Positions 7,537-22,981 are shown, counted from the stretch's first letter. The stretch: 32,000 bases of DNA from Candidatus Saccharimonadota bacterium (GCA_049511795.1 JBEKXS010000001.1:180001-212000), one strand, 5' to 3'. A program made the numbers and translations. Notes: generated by a model from the letters alone, not told the origin.

Positions 7537-8981
7537 AATCCAGTTGATCCTGCTGGCGGCTGCGGCTCTCTGGTTTGCACTTAGACATGCAAGTTATTTC
7601 ACTTAGCAATAGGTGGAAAGCGAACTGCTCAGTAACACGTAGCTAACCTGCCCTTAAGTCGATGATAACCTCGGGAAACTGAGACTAAAAATCGATAGAA
7701 GACATACCCTGGAAAGATTTGTCTTTGAAATTAGTGCTTAAGGATGGGGCTGCGGCGGATTAGGTAGTTGGCGGGGTAATAGCCCACCAAGCCTTTGATC
7801 CGTAAGGGCTCTTAGCGGAGAGGCCCTGAGAGGGAATCTGAGACACTATTCCCAGCCCTACGGGGTGCAGCAGTTAGGAATCATTTGCAATGCGCGAAAG
7901 CGTGACAATTTGAACCAGAGTGCTTTTCATTTGAAAAGCTTTTGCCAAATGTAAAAAGTTTGGCGAATAAGGACTGGGTAAGACGGGTGCCAGCCGCCGC
8001 GGTAATACCCGCGGTCCAAGTCGCAGCCATCTTTATTGGGTCTAAAACATCCGTAGCTTGCCTGATAAGTTCCTTGTGAAATCTTATCTCTTAAGGATAA
8101 GGCGTGCAAGGAGTACTGCCAGGCTAGAGACCGGAAGACGTAGGAAGTACGTTCGAAGTAGCGGTAAAATGCGTTAATCTCGAGCGGACTCACAACAGCG
8201 AAGGCATCCTACGAGGACGGTTCTGACTGTAAGGGATGAAGGCTAGGGGCGCAAAGTGGATTAGATACCCATGTAGTCCTAGCAGTAAACACTGCACACT
8301 AAACATTAGTACCTCCTCGAGAGGTATTGGTGCTGTAGAGAAGTCGAAGAGTGTGCTACCTGGGAAGTATAGCCGCAAGGCCGAAACTTAAAGGAATTGG
8401 CGGGGAGACACTACAACGGGTGACGCGTGCGGTTCAATTAGATTCTACACCGTGAACCTCACCAGGACCGACAGCAGAATGAAGGTCAGTCTAAAGGGCT
8501 TACCTGACACGCTGAGAGGAGTTGCATGGCCGACGTCAGCCTGTGTCGTGAGATGACCTGTTAAATCAGGTAACAGGCAAGACCCACATGTATATTTACT
8601 ATGCGTACAATATACAGATCGCCTTGGTAACATGGATGAAAGTGTGGGCTACGTTAGGTGAGTACAGCCTGAATGCCCTGGGCGACACGCGCGCGTCAAT
8701 GGTGGACACAGTGGGATGCAACTCCGAAAGGAGAAGCTAACCTCATAAAATCCATCTCAGTCCAGATTGAGGCTTGCAATTCAGCCTCATGACGCTGGAA
8801 TCCGTAGTAATCGTTCGTTAGCAGCAAACGGTGAATACGTCACTGTCTCTTGCACACACTGCCCGTCAAACCAACCAAGTTATGCTATGGTGAAACGATT
8901 TTTCGGAGAACCTTAGTATGGTGAGGTAGGTTAAGTCGTCACAAGGTATCTGTAGGGGAACCTGCAGATGGATCACCTCCT
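7537..8981 (+). rRNA. 16S (SSU) rRNA, archaeal, about 1445 nt
   Basis: 5-prime aatccagttgatcctgctggcgg; gtgccagccgccgcggtaatacc (515 region); ggattagataccc; aaaggaattggcgggg; 3-prime ggatcacctcct anti-SD. Ends are approximate to within a few nt. Confidence 0.95.
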
Positions 8982-9125: not shown

Positions 9126-9197
9126 GGGCCTGTAGTCCAATGGTTAGAATACCTCGTTTGCACCGAGGAGTTCCGGGTTCGATTCCCGGCAGGTCCA
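9126..9197 (+). tRNA. tRNA-Ala (anticodon UGC) in the 16S-23S spacer
   Basis: The cloverleaf folds by hand: acceptor GGGCCUG/CAGGUCC, anticodon stem CCUCG/CGAGG with loop UUUGCAC, T-arm CCGGG-UUCGAUU-CCCGG. CCA is not encoded. This is the classic archaeal spacer tRNA. Confidence 0.9.
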
Positions 9198-9619: not shown

Positions 9620-12440
<2,821 letters not shown>

Positions 12441-12539
12441 ATTGATTTTTTATTATGTAAATAAAATTGCAATCTTAAGAAGTCAATACAATTTTATGTC
12501 CAAAACAATTTCATTTCCCGATTTATTGATTCAGGTTTC

Positions 12540-12554
12540 ACCTTTCTTGCTTAT
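12540..12554 (+). other. 23S processing-stem 3-prime strand
   Basis: 15-nt perfect complement of 9574-9588. It lies about 100 nt past the mature 23S end. Confidence 0.5.
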
Positions 12555-12575
12555 TGAGGATTTTATGATTTTTTT
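12542..12575 (+). repeat. Direct repeat copy 1 (ctttcttgcttattgag-ga-ttttatgattttttt); includes an oligo-T run, a candidate terminator
   Basis: Repeated 70 nt downstream with 17 + 15 identical nt. It ends in a T7-8 run, the archaeal termination signal type. Confidence 0.7.
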
Positions 12576-12611
12576 TCTAGAAAAAGTTCTTATAATGTAT
12601 ATTGTGCGAAG

Positions 12612-12644
12612 CTTTCTTGCTTATTGAGCTTTTATGATTTTTTT
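12612..12644 (+). repeat. Direct repeat copy 2 (ctttcttgcttattgag-c-ttttatgattttttt)
   Basis: See copy 1. It differs only at the central GA/C and in the base preceding the repeat. Confidence 0.7.
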
Positions 12645-12661
12645 GGTTTCTTGTTAGAATT

Positions 12662-13519
12662 TTAAGAGAGTATACTTTCTCCTAATCTCTTTTTTGATAA
12701 TTCATTTATTAGATTTTTCAGAGAATTATAAAAATTCATTGTTAGAAAATAATAATTCTGATAAAATTCAATTATCTCTCCAGAGTATATCTCTTGGTTT
12801 AAGAAATCTAAATCTCTATAGTTTGTTTTAATTCTATACCAATAAAAAAATTCAAAAAGACTAATTTCACTGTTTTTAAAAAATCCTTCTTTCTTTTTTC
12901 TATCTATTTTTGTTTGAAAATGTTTTAATCCAGTGTATCTGCAGAAATCCTCAAATTTATATTTACACAGTTTTTTTAAAATACTATTAATGCGTGTTTG
13001 TTCATCAACAGATAATCTTAGTGTATCTCCTGATTTTGATATAAAATTGATTGCCTCTTCGCAACTTTCAACCATGTTAAAGCCAGCTTTACTAAATAAG
13101 ATGTCCTTATTTTTTAACATATTTCTAAAATTACTTATAGTTTTATGATGTGGAAAGTTAAGATTATTTTCATCGTTATTAAATAAAGCGCATGTAACCA
13201 ATAACAAATTAAAAATTAGATAATATGATTTAACTGGAATCCACATTGAACAAACTTTTGCGAAGTCTTTTTCTTTTAAGGCTTTTTTATACTCTTCTTC
13301 TAAACTTTCCTTAATAATTTTAATTAGATTAATTTTCTTAGCCAATGCCTTTTTAGAAAAATTAGATTTTGTAACAATATCTTTATTTAATTTAGCTGTT
13401 AGCTCTTCAGATAAATCTTTCATAAATGTAACATAATTTAGATGTGTTCTAAAATCTGGGGGTGTTGAAGGAGAAACCACTAAAGTCCAACCATCTTCAT
13501 TTTCAGGTATATCTACCAT
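12662..13519 (-). CDS. Uncharacterised 285-aa protein, predicted mostly alpha-helical; divergent partner of the nuclease-like ORF
   Basis: Long ORF in an AT-rich island, 61 nt head-to-head with 13581-14321. Features include a hydrophobic helix (SYYLIFNLLLVTCALF) and an aromatic/Arg-rich C-terminal segment (FEFFYWYRIKTNYRDLDF). No family is confidently recognised. Confidence 0.5.
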   Translation of the reverse strand: MVDIPENEDGWTLVVSPSTPPDFRTHLNYVTFMKDLSEELTAKLNKDIVTKSNFSKKALAKKINLIKIIKESLEEEYKKALKEKDFAKVCSMWIPVKSYYLIFNLLLVTCALFNNDENNLNFPHHKTISNFRNMLKNKDILFSKAGFNMVESCEEAINFISKSGDTLRLSVDEQTRINSILKKLCKYKFEDFCRYTGLKHFQTKIDRKKKEGFFKNSEISLFEFFYWYRIKTNYRDLDFLNQEIYSGEIIEFYQNYYFLTMNFYNSLKNLINELSKKRLGESILS

Positions 13520-13580
13520 AGAATTTAATGATTATAAACAGTTTAATAAGATTTTTATACTGATTGGAAGTCAAGAATTT

Positions 13581-14321
13581 ATGGATTTTAGAGAAGAGCA
13601 ATATGAAGAGTATAGGTATATTATAGCAAATTTAGATTATACTACAGATAAGATTTTACTAGATAGTGTTGAAAAAAAAGGCAAAGAAGATGCAGAAAAA
13701 CAGAACAAGAGTGATCCTTCTGGAGAGATTAGAGAAAAAGAGAAAATATTATACAATAATATTGCGGGAGTTTTAGCGGAAGAAATTGTCAAAGAGTATC
13801 TAAAAAAGCTTATAACAGATTATAAATTAAGTTCTAAAATAATTCCCACCCCTTTCGTGAACCATAAAACTCATCGGGATATAAAAATTGAAGTTAAAGG
13901 AGTAGAAAAAACAATAGAAGTAAGGTCTTCTTTTCAGATAAGCCCCAGATTAACAATAAAAGGTATTCTTACATGGGCTTTTAGACTTCTTGGAAGATAT
14001 ACCACTAAATACAAACCCAAAGAAGAAGAAAAAGATTTTTACATAACTGTGTTACATAGATACCGAAATGAAGAGATAATGAATAAAATAAAAAACAAAA
14101 TTGAAGCATATATAATTGGAGGAGCATCAAAAGAAATTTTCAATAAGATAGGCGAAGATGATAATAGTGGACTAAAGCAAGGAGAAGCATGTTATAGAGT
14201 AATTCGTCCAATAATTTCTGCTCCAAAAGATAGTATAGGTATTTTTAAAGAAATTTTAGAATTGGAAGATGAGTCTAAAAAAGTTTTAGTTAAGATGATA
14301 AAGCAAAAAACTCTTTTTTAA
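13581..14321 (+). CDS. Putative type II restriction endonuclease (PD-(D/E)xK-like core), 246 aa
   Basis: It overlaps the methyltransferase gene by 4 nt tail-to-tail. The helix AGVLAEEIVKEYL is followed by HRDIKIEVKGVEKTIEVRSS (E67/E68, D100, E104-V-K106 or E113-V-R115), which resembles a nuclease core. The function is inferred. Confidence 0.4.
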   Translation: MDFREEQYEEYRYIIANLDYTTDKILLDSVEKKGKEDAEKQNKSDPSGEIREKEKILYNNIAGVLAEEIVKEYLKKLITDYKLSSKIIPTPFVNHKTHRDIKIEVKGVEKTIEVRSSFQISPRLTIKGILTWAFRLLGRYTTKYKPKEEEKDFYITVLHRYRNEEIMNKIKNKIEAYIIGGASKEIFNKIGEDDNSGLKQGEACYRVIRPIISAPKDSIGIFKEILELEDESKKVLVKMIKQKTLF

Positions 14322-15310
14322 TTAACCATAACCATCCCCAATCTTTCAGAAAATAAATTATTATCTTTTATTATTTTTATCTCTCCAACTCTTTTTTTCA
14401 CTAATTCACAAGCACTTAATGATAAGTCCATCCCAATAAATCTTCTACCTTTCTTAAATGCTGAAGCTATTGTTGTACCGCAACCACAAAATGGATCAAG
14501 GACAATGTCCCCTTTCTTTGAAGACATCTCAATTATTCTATCTAATAATTTTTCATTCTTTTCTGTTGGGTATCCAAACTTAAACGAATATGCAGTAATG
14601 TCATCCCAACAATTATCTAAAATGGTTCGAGAACTCTTTGGAATTAAATATTCTGGCTTTCCAGTTTTAGAATTTGGTCTTAAAATTCCTTCTTTTATTG
14701 ATTTCATAGCCCTTTCTTTAGACCATCTCCAATGATTACCTTTTTTAGGTCTAAATCCAAATAATTCATAATCCATTCCTTTACGAGTTTCAGGTGCTTC
14801 AAAACTATGCCACCTTTCCGGCTTTTCTTCATCTTTTTTTGGAGAATTAATTAAATGTTTTTCTGATTTAGCATAAAAAAGGATTACATCATAACCTACA
14901 TTTAATTTTCTTACCATTTCTCTTTCATTAACATTTTTTTTAATCCTTTTTACAGATATTTCATTTCTAAAATTATCATAACCAAAAACATTATCTAAAA
15001 TAATTTTAATATAATGGCTAGCATGCCAATCACAATGGAGATATAAAGCACCATCTTTTTTTAGAACCCTGTATAATTCAATAACTCTTTCTTTTATAAA
15101 TTGGATATAATCTTGCAAATTTTCCCAGTTATTATCTGAAAATTCGTGCTTATTTCCTTCTTCTTTAAATCCTTTAGAATAATTTTTTCTGGTAAAAAAT
15201 GGGGGGTCTAAATAAATTAATTTTATGGAATCAGAGGGTATTGATTTAAGAGCATCTAGATTATCTCCATGATAGATAATACCCGAAGCAAGTTCCTCCT
15301 CTCTTTTCAC
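14318..15310 (-). CDS. Beta-class DNA methyltransferase (N6-adenine or N4-cytosine, N6_N4_Mtase family)
   Basis: Motif IV DPPF (LIYLDPPFF) near the N-terminus. The AdoMet motif I VLDPFCGCGTTIASA...GRRFIGMDL is near the C-terminus, a permuted order typical of the beta group. Confidence 0.9.
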   Translation of the reverse strand: MKREEELASGIIYHGDNLDALKSIPSDSIKLIYLDPPFFTRKNYSKGFKEEGNKHEFSDNNWENLQDYIQFIKERVIELYRVLKKDGALYLHCDWHASHYIKIILDNVFGYDNFRNEISVKRIKKNVNEREMVRKLNVGYDVILFYAKSEKHLINSPKKDEEKPERWHSFEAPETRKGMDYELFGFRPKKGNHWRWSKERAMKSIKEGILRPNSKTGKPEYLIPKSSRTILDNCWDDITAYSFKFGYPTEKNEKLLDRIIEMSSKKGDIVLDPFCGCGTTIASAFKKGRRFIGMDLSLSACELVKKRVGEIKIIKDNNLFSERLGMVMVN

Positions 15311-15442
15311 ATTATTAATATAATCTTGTTCTTTAAAATTCTTTCTTCTTATCTCAACCCCTCATACGTTTTCCCATTAAGAATTATTTAAGACTTACTT
15401 TTCACACAGAAAATTCTTCTTTAAACATTTTTTATTCAATAT

Positions 15443-15616
15443 CTAATCTTCCATTTTTAGAAGAACAATTGCTAAAATTAACATTAGTAACGGAAGAGTA
15501 AAAGCCAAAACTTTATTTTGACTGGCAGGCAGTATAAGGGGACTTAACTGAATGGTCGCTAGAACAATCGCAAATTCTGCTATTCCCTTACTTATGGCTT
15601 TATTCCATTTTACCAT
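15443..15616 (-). CDS. Possible 57-aa two-TM protein upstream of the methyltransferase (below the ORF-track cutoff)
   Basis: Hand translation gives MVKWNKAISKGIAEFAIVLATIQLSPLILPASQNKVLAFTLPLLMLILAIVLLKMED. It is on the same strand as the methylase. Support is only ORF shape and hydrophobicity. Confidence 0.25.
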   Translation of the reverse strand: MVKWNKAISKGIAEFAIVLATIQLSPLILPASQNKVLAFTLPLLMLILAIVLLKMED

Positions 15617-15691
15617 ATTTAATTTGAACTAAATAACTTCTTAATTCTTTCTGTAGAAAACTATAAAAATTGAATAATTGTTTGGTTTATT

Positions 15692-16570
15692 ATGGGTTTT
15701 TGGGATAAAGTAAAGGAAGTTGGAAAAACAGCTAGCAATGAAATTTCTTCATTTATTAATAATGTCCAAAAAAGAAACGCTAAATGGAAAGGATATAAAG
15801 AATTAAAATTGAAAATTGTTGGAAATTCTTCTTTAAGTGAATTAAAAGAAATCTGTCGTGAATATGGGATTAAAGAACCAAAATTATATTGGGTGGATTT
15901 TTATAGTGGAAAAAAGGAGACATTAGGAAATCCAAGAGATCTATTTCTTAATCAAATAATTAGGAAAATGCCTTTAGACAAGTTAATTGATTATGGACGA
16001 AAGAAAAGAATACCTGTAAATGAAATAATCAATGAAAAGAAGAAAATTGATGAAGAATTTGGACAAACTACAGAAAAGGGCATAAAAGAAGGAGATTTTG
16101 AATTAGAAATGGGAAAACAAGAAGAATCTGAAGATGAGTTTGAGTTGGTATTAAAGAGCATAGAAGGTTTTAATCCCGGAAATGTAAGAGATGAAAAAGA
16201 TTTAGAAATCCAATTAAAACAGTGGCTTATAGCAAAATTAGGAAGTTATAATATAGAAACCCAGTATAAAACAGAGAAAGGGGACCTTGATATAATGATT
16301 AACAAAAAATATGGAATAGAATTAAAACTTATAGAAAATAGGAAAACTCTAGAAAATTTATATGGTCAGGTTCTTAAATATATAAAAGTATTAGGAAAAG
16401 ATAATTTGGCAGTTATCCTCCTCGTAGCTGAGTATATTCATAACAATGACATAGAAGAAGCTATAAAAGATTATGAAAATCTTGGTGCAAGAGTCTATAT
16501 TTTAGAAAAAGGTAGGATAAAAAGAAATAGACCTATTACCAAAACTGCAACGATTTCTTGGCATAGATAA
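15692..16570 (+). CDS. Orphan nuclease: two HeH/SAP(Rho_N)-like motifs, an acidic linker and a C-terminal RecB/Cas4-style PD-(D/E)xK domain
   Basis: SLSELKEICREYGIK and LDKLIDYGRKKRI resemble HeH motifs. The C-terminus has E168/E172, GDLD200I, GIE210-L-K212 and GQ226VLKY230 (QxxxY), the restriction-endonuclease-fold motif order. Confidence 0.55.
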   Translation: MGFWDKVKEVGKTASNEISSFINNVQKRNAKWKGYKELKLKIVGNSSLSELKEICREYGIKEPKLYWVDFYSGKKETLGNPRDLFLNQIIRKMPLDKLIDYGRKKRIPVNEIINEKKKIDEEFGQTTEKGIKEGDFELEMGKQEESEDEFELVLKSIEGFNPGNVRDEKDLEIQLKQWLIAKLGSYNIETQYKTEKGDLDIMINKKYGIELKLIENRKTLENLYGQVLKYIKVLGKDNLAVILLVAEYIHNNDIEEAIKDYENLGARVYILEKGRIKRNRPITKTATISWHR

Positions 16571-16655: not shown

Positions 16656-17486
16656 TTACTGCCTTATCTTCCCCTGTTGCCAATCCTTCAGAACTTGCTT
16701 TGCTGTTCTCATGTCATCTATTTCTCCATGCTTCTTCAGGAAGCGAAGCTTTTTTCCTAATTCTTCCAGAAGAATTTCGGAATCGCCACTTGCTTCAATA
16801 CCATAATGCTTTTCAAGAATTCCTGGATATTCTGCCATTATTCTATGAACAGCCAGCTGCGGGTCTCTTGCCCTGTCCCATGTTATTGCTCCTATCTGCG
16901 CATGCTTTGCCATTAATTCCCTGTTTGAATATGGCTTTTCATCAAGAGGAATTATTCCTGGCGTGTCAATAAGATAAATGCCTGAAGATATTTTCAGTTT
17001 CTGTATTCCGCGGGTGAAACCTGCCTCGCTGGAAGTCCTGGAAACATTTCTTCCGACAAGGAGATTGATAAGCGAGCTTTTTCCTGTGTTTGGATATCCT
17101 ATAATTCCTACGTCAACTTTCTCTGAATCTATTTTCTTTGCCTCTTTCTTTATCAAGTCCATGAGAACTCTCTGGCCATGCCTTTGGGTTGCAGAGAAAA
17201 AAACCATCGGCCTCATTCCTGAAAGCTCAACATTCTTTTCTATTTCCCTTGGATTGACAAGGTCTGCCTTGTTGAAAACATAGACCAATGGCTTTCCAAG
17301 CTTCTTCACTTTTTCCTCAATTTTCTGGTTTCTTGTCTTCTCTACAAATCTTGAATCCAAAATTTCCAGAATTATGTCTGCATTTTTTATGACAAGGTCT
17401 ATTATCTCAGCAACATGAATCCTGTGCTGGCTTGTGTGCATGCTTTTTCCACGCATAGGCTTTGCCTTGCCAAAACTGCTTTTCAT
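16656..17486 (-). CDS. Circularly permuted GTPase (YlqF/RbgA/YawG-type ribosome-biogenesis GTPase)
   Basis: The G4 motif NKADL precedes G1 GYPNTGKSSLIN and G3 DTPG, the permuted order diagnostic of this family. Confidence 0.8.
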   Translation of the reverse strand: MKSSFGKAKPMRGKSMHTSQHRIHVAEIIDLVIKNADIILEILDSRFVEKTRNQKIEEKVKKLGKPLVYVFNKADLVNPREIEKNVELSGMRPMVFFSATQRHGQRVLMDLIKKEAKKIDSEKVDVGIIGYPNTGKSSLINLLVGRNVSRTSSEAGFTRGIQKLKISSGIYLIDTPGIIPLDEKPYSNRELMAKHAQIGAITWDRARDPQLAVHRIMAEYPGILEKHYGIEASGDSEILLEELGKKLRFLKKHGEIDDMRTAKQVLKDWQQGKIRQ

Positions 17487-22499: not shown

Positions 22500-22778
22500 G
22501 TAAGTCGGGAAGTTAACTTTCGGGATTCAGCTCTTAACTGGGCAGATGTCGAAAAATATCGATATCGAATTCTGAGGAAGGTCCGGCCACCATATAACGT
22601 TGCCTTTTGAAAAAAAGGTTCTCGCGAGGGAAAGCTCCAGAACAGAAACGATCCTATTAAGTTAGGCTGAAACGGCTGACTCAACAGGTGCAACCTCTTT
22701 GAGGGCTTAGTCGAATGTTAACACAAACTGTCTGCCTCACGGCGGAGTTTGACAGAAGCTGGCCTATTCCTGACTTAC
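22500..22778 (+). ncRNA. rnpB: RNase P RNA (archaeal, compact, about 279 nt)
   Basis: The P1 helix gtaagtcgggaa (22500-22511) pairs with ttcctgacttac (22767-22778). The CR-I-like gaggaaggtccggccacca, cagaacagaaac, aggctgaaacgg and CR-V-like gacagaagctggcctat blocks occur in the expected order. A T5 run follows. Confidence 0.7.
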
Positions 22779-22841
22779 TTTTTCTTATTTATTATCAGAA
22801 AGTCTTTTAAAACAAATATAGCTATTGTAATCAGAATATTT

Positions 22842-22913
22842 GGGCAGGTAGCTCAGTGGGAGAGCACATGACTGAAGCTCATGGCGTCGGGGGTTCGATT
22901 CCCTCTCTGCCCA
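22842..22913 (+). tRNA. tRNA-Phe (anticodon GAA)
   Basis: Hand-folded cloverleaf: acceptor GGGCAGG/UCUGCCC, D-arm GCUC/GAGC, anticodon stem CAUGA/UCAUG with loop CUGAAGC, T-arm GGGGG-UUCGAUU-CCCUC. CCA is not encoded. Confidence 0.9.
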
Positions 22914-22981
22914 TTTATACAACAACATTTATAAAATTAAAACAGCTAGTATAAAAATAAAGGTTATTAAAAAGAGGAAAA

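Follow-up and report, generated by a model that had tools for sequence, protein, structure and literature searches.

A probable mosaic of accessory modules adjoining the rRNA operon in a Candidatus Pacearchaeota genome: a candidate type II restriction-modification pair, a widespread all-alpha protein family and a solitary nuclease

The window analysed here is a stretch of 32,000 nucleotides (nt; GCA_049511795.1 JBEKXS010000001.1:180001-212000) whose source is a Candidatus Pacearchaeota (DPANN) metagenome-assembled genome (MAG). It contains an AT-rich island of five open reading frames (ORFs), named ORF-A, ORF-B, ORF-M, ORF-E and the mini ORF, between the 23S rRNA gene and a GTPase gene (Table 1). 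ORF-A, ORF-B and ORF-E correspond to the locus tags ABSG05_01260, 01265 and 01275, respectively, and ORF-M is annotated by NCBI as 'site-specific DNA-methyltransferase'. A preliminary description, made from the sequence without database searches, had delineated the same five ORFs, all of which were reproduced at its coordinates together with the 4-nt tail-to-tail overlap between ORF-B and ORF-M (14318-14321), and had raised the possibility that they form one composite defence module. With a probability of about 0.7, we favour another reading, in which the island would combine, as a mosaic, three independent accessory modules located next to the Pacearchaeota rRNA operon, namely a type II restriction-modification (R-M) pair composed of ORF-B and ORF-M, the uncharacterised ORF-A, and the nuclease ORF-E. 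Loci fetched for comparison are designated below by L numbers.

Table 1. Features of the rRNA operon and of the adjacent AT-rich island (window positions; aa, amino acids)
Feature	Coordinates	Strand	Assignment or basis
ORF-A, 285 aa	12662-13519	-	Widespread uncharacterised all-alpha family
ORF-B, 246 aa	13581-14321	+	Candidate type II restriction endonuclease, PD-(D/E)xK-like core
ORF-M, 330 aa	14318-15310	-	Beta-class N6/N4 DNA methyltransferase
Mini ORF, 57 aa, hydrophobic	15443-15616	-	Probably no gene
ORF-E, 292 aa	15692-16570	+	Solitary SAP-like + PD-(D/E)xK nuclease
Spacer, 23S 3' end to ORF-A stop	12452-12661		Left boundary of the ~3.2-kb indel seen against L011
Divergent ORF-A/ORF-B intergenic region, 61 nt	13520-13580		Holds AGATTTTTATA
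16S rRNA	7537-8981		Rfam
tRNA-Ala	9126-9197		Rfam
23S rRNA	9627-12451		Rfam
MMR_HSR1 GTPase	16656-17486		Pfam match

With regard to base composition, ORF-A, ORF-B, ORF-M and ORF-E display a GC content of 0.25-0.30 and a GC content at third codon positions (GC3) of 0.18-0.19, compared with means of 0.352±0.029 and 0.291±0.059, respectively, for the 26 other ORFs of the window. The island thus lies about two standard deviations below the flanking ORFs, so that the AT-richness previously judged by eye is now computed and the island is indeed compositionally atypical; the excess of Asn, Lys and Ile that had also been perceived is only marginal (0.28 in the island versus 0.24±0.055 elsewhere).

A comparison with L011, a locus of a related Pacearchaeota genome that encodes an ORF-E homologue of 69% identity, gives an indication of how the island was assembled. 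In blastn alignments, the 23S homology stops at window position 12439 and restarts at 15645, leaving 3205 nt in the window for about 95 nt between the 23S 3' end and the ORF-E upstream region in L011. Since the 23S gene directly adjoins ORF-E in that locus, ORF-A, ORF-B, ORF-M and the mini ORF (window ~12.45-15.64 kb) constitute an indel of about 3.2 kb, the junctions of which align ambiguously in the AT-rich spacer. This indel is most simply interpreted as an insertion between the 23S gene and ORF-E, a direction that we infer from the composition of the cassette and from the mobility of the ORF-B/ORF-M pair elsewhere. A search for terminal repeats or target-site duplications at the boundaries of the cassette gave no convincing case, the only repeat being a local 33-nt direct repeat to the left of ORF-A.

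The five ORFs are contiguous and share a low GC and GC3, and ORF-A, ORF-B and ORF-M are found together once more, in L004, as would be expected if all five cooperated in a single defence module. However, the components occur apart in nearly all related loci: the ORF-B/ORF-M pair is present without ORF-A or ORF-E in L001, ORF-A is adjacent to ORF-B in only 1 of the 58 ORF-B-family loci with a callable neighbour and is otherwise found with type I, ISP, II and III systems or alone, ORF-E is present without the three others in L011, L012 and L013, and the mini ORF turns up nowhere else. The composite module is thus largely refuted by this missing co-occurrence, and we regard it as scarcely credible; the case illustrates that contiguity and a common AT-richness do not imply a functional module. 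Several observations nevertheless weigh against the mosaic of three modules as we describe it. The third catalytic residue of ORF-B is an Arg rather than a Lys, and none of its Foldseek matches is significant, the best having an E-value of 0.03. ORF-A displays no recognisable catalytic fold or motif (Foldseek against PDB and BFVD, family profile against PDB), and about half of its loci lack an R-M gene within two genes. ORF-E shares the low GC3 of the cassette, and is AT-rich in L011 too. Finally, the choice between insertion and deletion rests on one comparator genome, L011, and neither a target-site duplication nor a recombinase was found at the cassette.

Among the members of the putative R-M pair, ORF-M is the most readily assigned. 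Known anti-phage systems were checked with PADLOC-DB v2 (5027 models), in which only ORF-M gave matches, to type II methylase models (MTase_II, 2.5e-54), no family being retrieved at E≤1 for ORF-A, ORF-B, the mini ORF or ORF-E. ORF-M also matches PF01555 (N6_N4_Mtase) over the entire profile (positions 1-221 of 221) with an E-value of 1.9e-40 and 139.6 bits, for a gathering cut-off of 26.7. Its DPPF sequence (motif IV, residues 35-38) precedes the FCGCG sequence of motif I (residues 274-278, in the context FCGCGTT), an order that places it in the beta class. In agreement with what had been proposed from these motifs, ORF-M is a beta-class N6/N4 DNA methyltransferase. The closest solved relative in the PDB is CcrM (2.2e-21), and the top matches also include MboIIA and DpnA; considering the DPPF motif and the adenine specificity of these three relatives, the target is probably N6-adenine. 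ORF-M would methylate host DNA, and thereby mark host sites.

ORF-B, in contrast to ORF-M, is unmatched in Pfam, NCBIfam and PADLOC and among PDB sequences. As its comparison with PDB sequences returned nothing with either a single-sequence or a profile query, a relationship at the sequence level with solved restriction endonucleases was dropped. In a set of 5.8 billion clusters, 23 homologues were retrieved, and an alignment of 22 family members reveals that E67, E113, R115 and K151-D152 are invariant and D100 nearly so. The nuclease-like E..D..ExK/R core that had been noticed in the single sequence is therefore a conserved feature of the family, consisting of E67, D100 and E113-V-R115, with an Arg at the position where the PD-(D/E)xK canon has a Lys. 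The AlphaFold (AF2) model of the protein, with a predicted local distance difference test score (pLDDT) of 88 and a predicted template modelling score (pTM) of 0.86, displays the core order alpha-beta-beta-beta-alpha-beta, in which E67 is carried by the first core helix, D100 by beta2 and E113-x-R115 by beta3. No PDB structure was significantly similar to this model in Foldseek searches (best E-value as given above, TM-scores ≤0.45); the weak top matches are nearly all PD-(D/E)xK nucleases, including a phage Hjc-type resolvase, I-Ssp6803I (probability 0.94), R.SwaI, SPARDA and MGME1.

The genomic context of the ORF-B family across genomes is the decisive evidence supporting its reading as a restriction endonuclease. 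The convergent arrangement of ORF-B and ORF-M, with its 4-nt overlap, recurs in L001 and L004 (73-78% nucleotide identity), in both cases beside insertion sequence (IS) elements, while L002 harbours a 47%-identical ORF-B homologue followed by two EcoRI-type methylase genes. A metagenome scan provided 60 loci of the family, 58 of them with a callable neighbour and 92 neighbours in total. In 44 of these 58 loci, an immediate neighbour belongs to one of four methylase clusters, of the N6_N4 type in 14 cases and the EcoRI type in 10, the remaining 20 falling in two clusters whose D12-class label was assigned from Pfam counts. A Pfam census of the 92 neighbours gives a similar distribution (D12 20, N6_N4 13, EcoRI-type 10). 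More distant relatives of ORF-B come after large N-6 methylases on plasmids of M. jannaschii and T. barophilus. The exchange of partners by one endonuclease-fold family, from one methylase family to another unrelated one, is a classic signature of restriction endonucleases, and this behaviour of the ORF-B family supports the type II reading.

The opposite view, that ORF-B is not the cognate enzyme of ORF-M but a type IV enzyme, a repair nuclease or the subunit of a heterodimer, leaving ORF-M as an orphan methylase, could draw on the atypical ExR core, on the lack of a significant structural match and on the finding that distant ORF-B-like proteins adjoin AlwI-family endonucleases or GmrSD genes, where a nuclease is already present. 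We consider it quite improbable, given the methylase adjacency in the metagenome loci and the consistent layout of the close relatives (≥44% identity), which are convergent and overlapping with an N6_N4 methylase gene and have no other nuclease nearby. The partnership of ORF-B and ORF-M suggested by the preliminary description, as a type II R-M pair, is thus supported by its recurrence in L001 and L004 and by the frequent adjacency of an adenine methylase, and the two proteins are predicted to constitute a conventional type II system in which ORF-M is the cognate methylase of ORF-B. ORF-B, as a putative PD-(D/E)xK-type enzyme with an E-D-ExR core, would cut unmethylated incoming DNA at the site of ORF-M, cleavage and methylation presumably sharing the same specificity.

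Compared with type II (IIP-like) systems that comprise a PF01555 methylase, such as CcrM, M.MboIIA and M.RsrI, the pair presents two convergent overlapping genes, a methylase with DPPF before FCGCGTT, and a methylase-linked candidate endonuclease family with the expected core order in its model and conserved acidic residues, in an AT-rich, mobile cassette. It differs from them in that relatives of the ORF-B family are lacking in Pfam, PADLOC and PDB, in that this family carries E-x-R for E-x-K, and in that no controller (C) protein is recognisable in the island. The existence of an R-M pair is in itself routine; the ORF-B family, absent from the Pfam copy searched and from NCBIfam, PADLOC and PHROGs, and devoid of a PDB relative (REBASE not searched), could give a new restriction specificity.

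Other members of the ORF-B superfamily occur in different settings. In five loci (L062, L072, L076, L078 and L080), ORF-B-like proteins with 30-35% identity lie between a putative D12-class methylase and a neighbour of about 530 residues, taken from Pfam counts and cluster sizes to be an AlwI-family endonuclease. This arrangement suggests that these distant proteins may act as the small catalytic subunit in type IIS heterodimers; they showed no similarity to the small subunit of BspD6I, which is solved. On the M. hollandica plasmid pMETHO01 (L107, 112561-122586), a cluster encodes a helicase, a DUF4391 protein, an ORF-B-like protein, a methylase and a DEAD-helicase, which indicates that the superfamily has also been recruited into larger ATP-dependent restriction-like systems.

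ORF-E represents a second nuclease of the island. It matches the 'nuclease' family phrog_28707 (3.5e-14), and no curated family was found for it in the Pfam copy searched. Six close relatives were identified, and a profile search retrieved 397 representative clusters. The residues E168, D200, E210 and K212 recur in 90% or more of 150 relatives (E210-L-K212), so that the PD-(D/E)xK-type domain first recognised by eye holds for the family as a whole. A few relatives match DpnII-MboI (4.3e-06), PDDEXK_3 (3e-05), PDDEXK_9, MTES_1575, Tox-REase-9 or true SAP domains, and the N-terminus of the family profile matches the SAP domain of Ku70 (1jjr, E=0.0019). Judging from these similarities, ORF-E is a predicted nuclease combining an N-terminal SAP-like motif with a C-terminal PD-(D/E)xK domain, and is encoded by a separate accessory gene. 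It resembles the solitary SAP-motif PD-(D/E)xK nucleases of PHROG 28707 by its D...ExK core and its N-terminal SAP-like helix pair, and differs from them by the lack of a curated Pfam family in the copy searched and of a conserved gene partner. No close relative was encountered on viral contigs.

The question arises of whether ORF-E could be a second restriction endonuclease protected by ORF-M, or even its true partner, as its PD-(D/E)xK domain, the DpnII-MboI and MTES_1575 matches (both restriction endonuclease families) of its relatives and its divergent position, 381 nt from ORF-M, might suggest. However, its homologues with 56-69% identity immediately follow the 23S gene (L011) or are flanked by the enolase and rpS2 genes (L012 and L013), and none of these loci contains a methylase. 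As a classical methylation-sensitive restriction enzyme could not survive there, ORF-E is not expected to be one, and this alternative appears very improbable. The AT-richness of the homologue relative to its neighbours in L011, together with the variable location of the gene among relatives, points to an accessory gene forming a unit separate from the cassette.

The mini ORF, in which the preliminary description saw a two-transmembrane product and a possible defence component, does not sustain this role. It is hydrophobic, but it has no homologue: it is absent from a collection of 15 billion proteins in which neighbours from the same contigs are present, it was called by no gene caller in any assembly of this population, and tblastn against the 104 fetched loci gave no match. 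In L001 and L004, the equivalent position upstream of the methylase gene is occupied by unrelated small ORFs; these were rejected as homologues because they are similar neither to it nor to each other. A conserved gene or a structured RNA was also rejected, in view of the lack of homologues and of any Rfam match, and of folding z-scores of -0.5 and -1.5. The mini ORF is most likely spurious, and at best a lineage-specific gene.

ORF-A is the only element of the island with real discovery potential. Previously regarded as an orphan, it turns out to have at least 159 homologous clusters, distributed among Pace-, Woese- and Aenigmarchaeota and many Patescibacteria, with additional representatives in Brocadiia, Clostridia and proteobacterial MAGs. 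The family is characterised by the signature EFFYWYRIKxNYRDLxFL and by the invariant residues H26, K62, E76, W93, K97, H124, R229, K231, N233, D236 and R278. No Pfam match was obtained with the single sequence or with 36 family members scanned one by one, no family exists for it in NCBIfam, PADLOC or PHROGs, and the family profile retrieved no PDB sequence even at E≤10. The AF2 model is confident (pLDDT 90, pTM 0.87) and all-alpha; Foldseek found no meaningful counterpart for it in PDB or BFVD. The family was not found on IMG/VR viral contigs or PLSDB plasmids.

Owing to these features, the HEPN proteins tied to R-M systems (Abi2/AbiD-F, DUF4145 and MAE_18760-like) deserved attention, as they are likewise all-alpha, about 200-300 residues long and recurrently linked to R-M genes. 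However, the HEPN motif Rx4-6H is lacking in the ORF-A family, where none of the invariant Arg residues has a conserved His within 4-6 positions and the conserved stretch instead reads R229-I-K-x-N-Y-R-D. None of the 36 members has a HEPN match in Pfam, and a Foldseek match to a MAE_18760-like protein lacks significance (E 2.6, probability 0.10). The assignment of ORF-A as a HEPN/Abi protein was therefore rejected.

The neighbourhood of the family is more informative. In a Pfam census of the 98 genes located within two positions on either side of ORF-A homologues in 29 genome loci, the most frequent families all belong to R-M systems (N6_N4_Mtase, Methylase_S, ResIII, SWI2_SNF2, N6_Mtase, DEAD, Type_ISP_C, Eco57I, T1RH-like_C, HSDR_N and D12), and an R-M gene is found at most two genes away from the homologue in at least 15 of the 29 loci. 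In two genomes, one of Patescibacteria and one of another Pacearchaeota (L007/L009), the gene order is that of a type III-like operon, Mod-A-Res, with a 4-nt spacing or a 4-nt overlap, the partners of ORF-A being a Mod-like N6_N4 methylase of 561-568 residues and a ResIII/SWI2_SNF2 protein of 725-742 residues. The GC content of this operon is 0.24-0.32 versus 0.46-0.53 for the host genome, the contrast to be expected of a defence cassette acquired by horizontal transfer. In four other loci (L026, L028, L029 and L030), the homologue lies immediately after hsdS or overlaps it, or else lies before hsdR, resulting in the order HsdS-A-(x)-HsdR; it comes after a type ISP enzyme in L021 and after an N6_Mtase gene in L039. 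The remaining loci are stand-alone, in surroundings that vary and are in part mobile (among them a VirB4/TraG-like ATPase and a serine recombinase). Overall, the family spreads by horizontal transfer among DPANN, Patescibacteria and further lineages, landing in or beside R-M operons of every type.

A recurrent small partner of ORF-A, such as the PD-(D/E)xK protein of L005, was also considered, and dropped since an all-versus-all BLAST of 108 neighbours revealed only R-M subunits as shared genes. This PDDEXK_1 (Cas4-like) protein of about 216 residues is common to two Pacearchaeota-type contigs (L005:4272-4922 and L011:7294-7947); its gene lies directly upstream of the ORF-A homologue in L005 and is no conserved partner of ORF-A elsewhere. 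Further genes of a defence type accompany R-M operons that contain the family: a TIR_2 protein (438 aa) is encoded after Mod-A-Res at L009:8078-9394, and an OLD-family AAA_15+TOPRIM protein inside an ORF-A-containing type I operon at L030:8852-10531.

Two sets of described genes offer analogies for the role of ORF-A. The first consists of the PrrC/RloC anticodon nucleases and other guardians embedded in type I hsd operons, a guard or abortive-infection class for which the guard-gene principle has been set out, with PrrC sitting inside the EcoprrI hsd locus (PMC12707154). Like them, ORF-A occupies a co-transcribed position, flanked by hsdS and hsdR or by mod and res, and shows a patchy distribution through horizontal transfer. 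Unlike them, it has no ABC-ATPase/P-loop domain (no P-loop or AAA match in Pfam or NCBIfam, and an all-alpha model for the 285 residues), no anticodon-nuclease motif, and no sequence or fold similarity, and it is not confined to type I systems, being found as well with types II, ISP and III and on its own. The absence of the ATPase domain excludes it from the PrrC/RloC group. The second set comprises the 'guilt-by-embedding' phage defence candidates (PDC/HEC) of PADLOC (PMC12988326), with which ORF-A has in common that it is a single gene whose sole clue is its recurrent embedding in known defence operons, and that it is frequent in small-genome symbiotic lineages; it differs in that it matches 0 of the 5027 PADLOC-DB v2 models even at E≤1.

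By analogy with both sets, we infer that ORF-A may be an R-M-linked accessory gene acting as a second-line defence or guard protein tied to the neighbouring R-M system. A more specific version, which we put forward only tentatively and hold to be on the unlikely side, is that it constitutes a new family of R-M-coupled effectors or guards with a PrrC-like logic and a different chemistry, which would sense the failure or inhibition of the restriction enzyme and trigger a second-line response. The finding that about half of the loci have no R-M gene nearby means that ORF-A could also be an autonomous gene merely sharing islands with R-M systems. As a further alternative, ORF-A might be an integral R-M subunit or regulator, involved in assembly, in the control of restriction alleviation or in the timing of expression, rather than an independent effector or guard. 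Such a role would account for its translational coupling within the Mod/Res and HsdS/HsdR gene pairs, and for its divergence from ORF-B across a common 61-nt control region that is conserved in L004. It is, however, difficult to reconcile with the association of the family with mechanistically unrelated R-M types (I, ISP, II and III), with the loci devoid of R-M neighbours, with the existence of the ORF-B/ORF-M unit without ORF-A in L001, and with the lack of any DNA-binding or helix-turn-helix signature in Pfam scans including the 36 members, and we judge it unlikely.

Should ORF-A indeed be an R-M-coupled guard, it would represent a compact single-gene add-on in wide use in the ultra-small symbiotic lineages of DPANN and Patescibacteria. 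Few defence systems are recognised in these lineages, and a new R-M-linked accessory gene would help to explain how they cope with viruses. In any case, a large and conserved family with a confident fold matching nothing in PDB or BFVD, tied to R-M operons of every type in Patescibacteria (Candidate Phyla Radiation) and DPANN, provides a testable guilt-by-embedding candidate.

Sequence signals were also found in the spacers of the cassette. In the divergent ORF-A/ORF-B region, AGATTTTTATA is located at 13549-13559, about 22 nt 5' of the ORF-B start, and the alignment with the homologous L004 spacer indicates that it is kept there. It is likely to be the archaeal TATA box of a near-leaderless ORF-B mRNA, a promoter role suggested by its sequence and position. 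In archaeal DNA as AT-rich as this, scans for sigma-70 promoters and terminators were uninformative (24 sites versus 23 expected). To the left of ORF-A, two 33-nt direct repeats (12542-12574 and 12612-12644, 70 nt apart) have in common the exact 17-mer CTTTCTTGCTTATTGAG, for which 0.01 chance matches are expected. The 33-nt repeat is absent from all fetched loci and gives no folding signal. A sub-threshold match to a C/D-box small nucleolar RNA (12510-12595, E 0.34) overlaps it.

With regard to the rRNA operon itself, no 5S rRNA gene was detected 3' of the 23S gene in the window. The RNase P RNA (22522-22778) and tRNA-Phe (22841-22914) genes are located about 10 kb from the 23S gene. The 23S gene of L011 carries an insertion of about 720 nt (L011:928-1650) that contains an ORF for a LAGLIDADG_1 homing endonuclease (L011 1106-1393); the insertion site corresponds to position 12161 of the window, whose own 23S gene is uninterrupted at this point.

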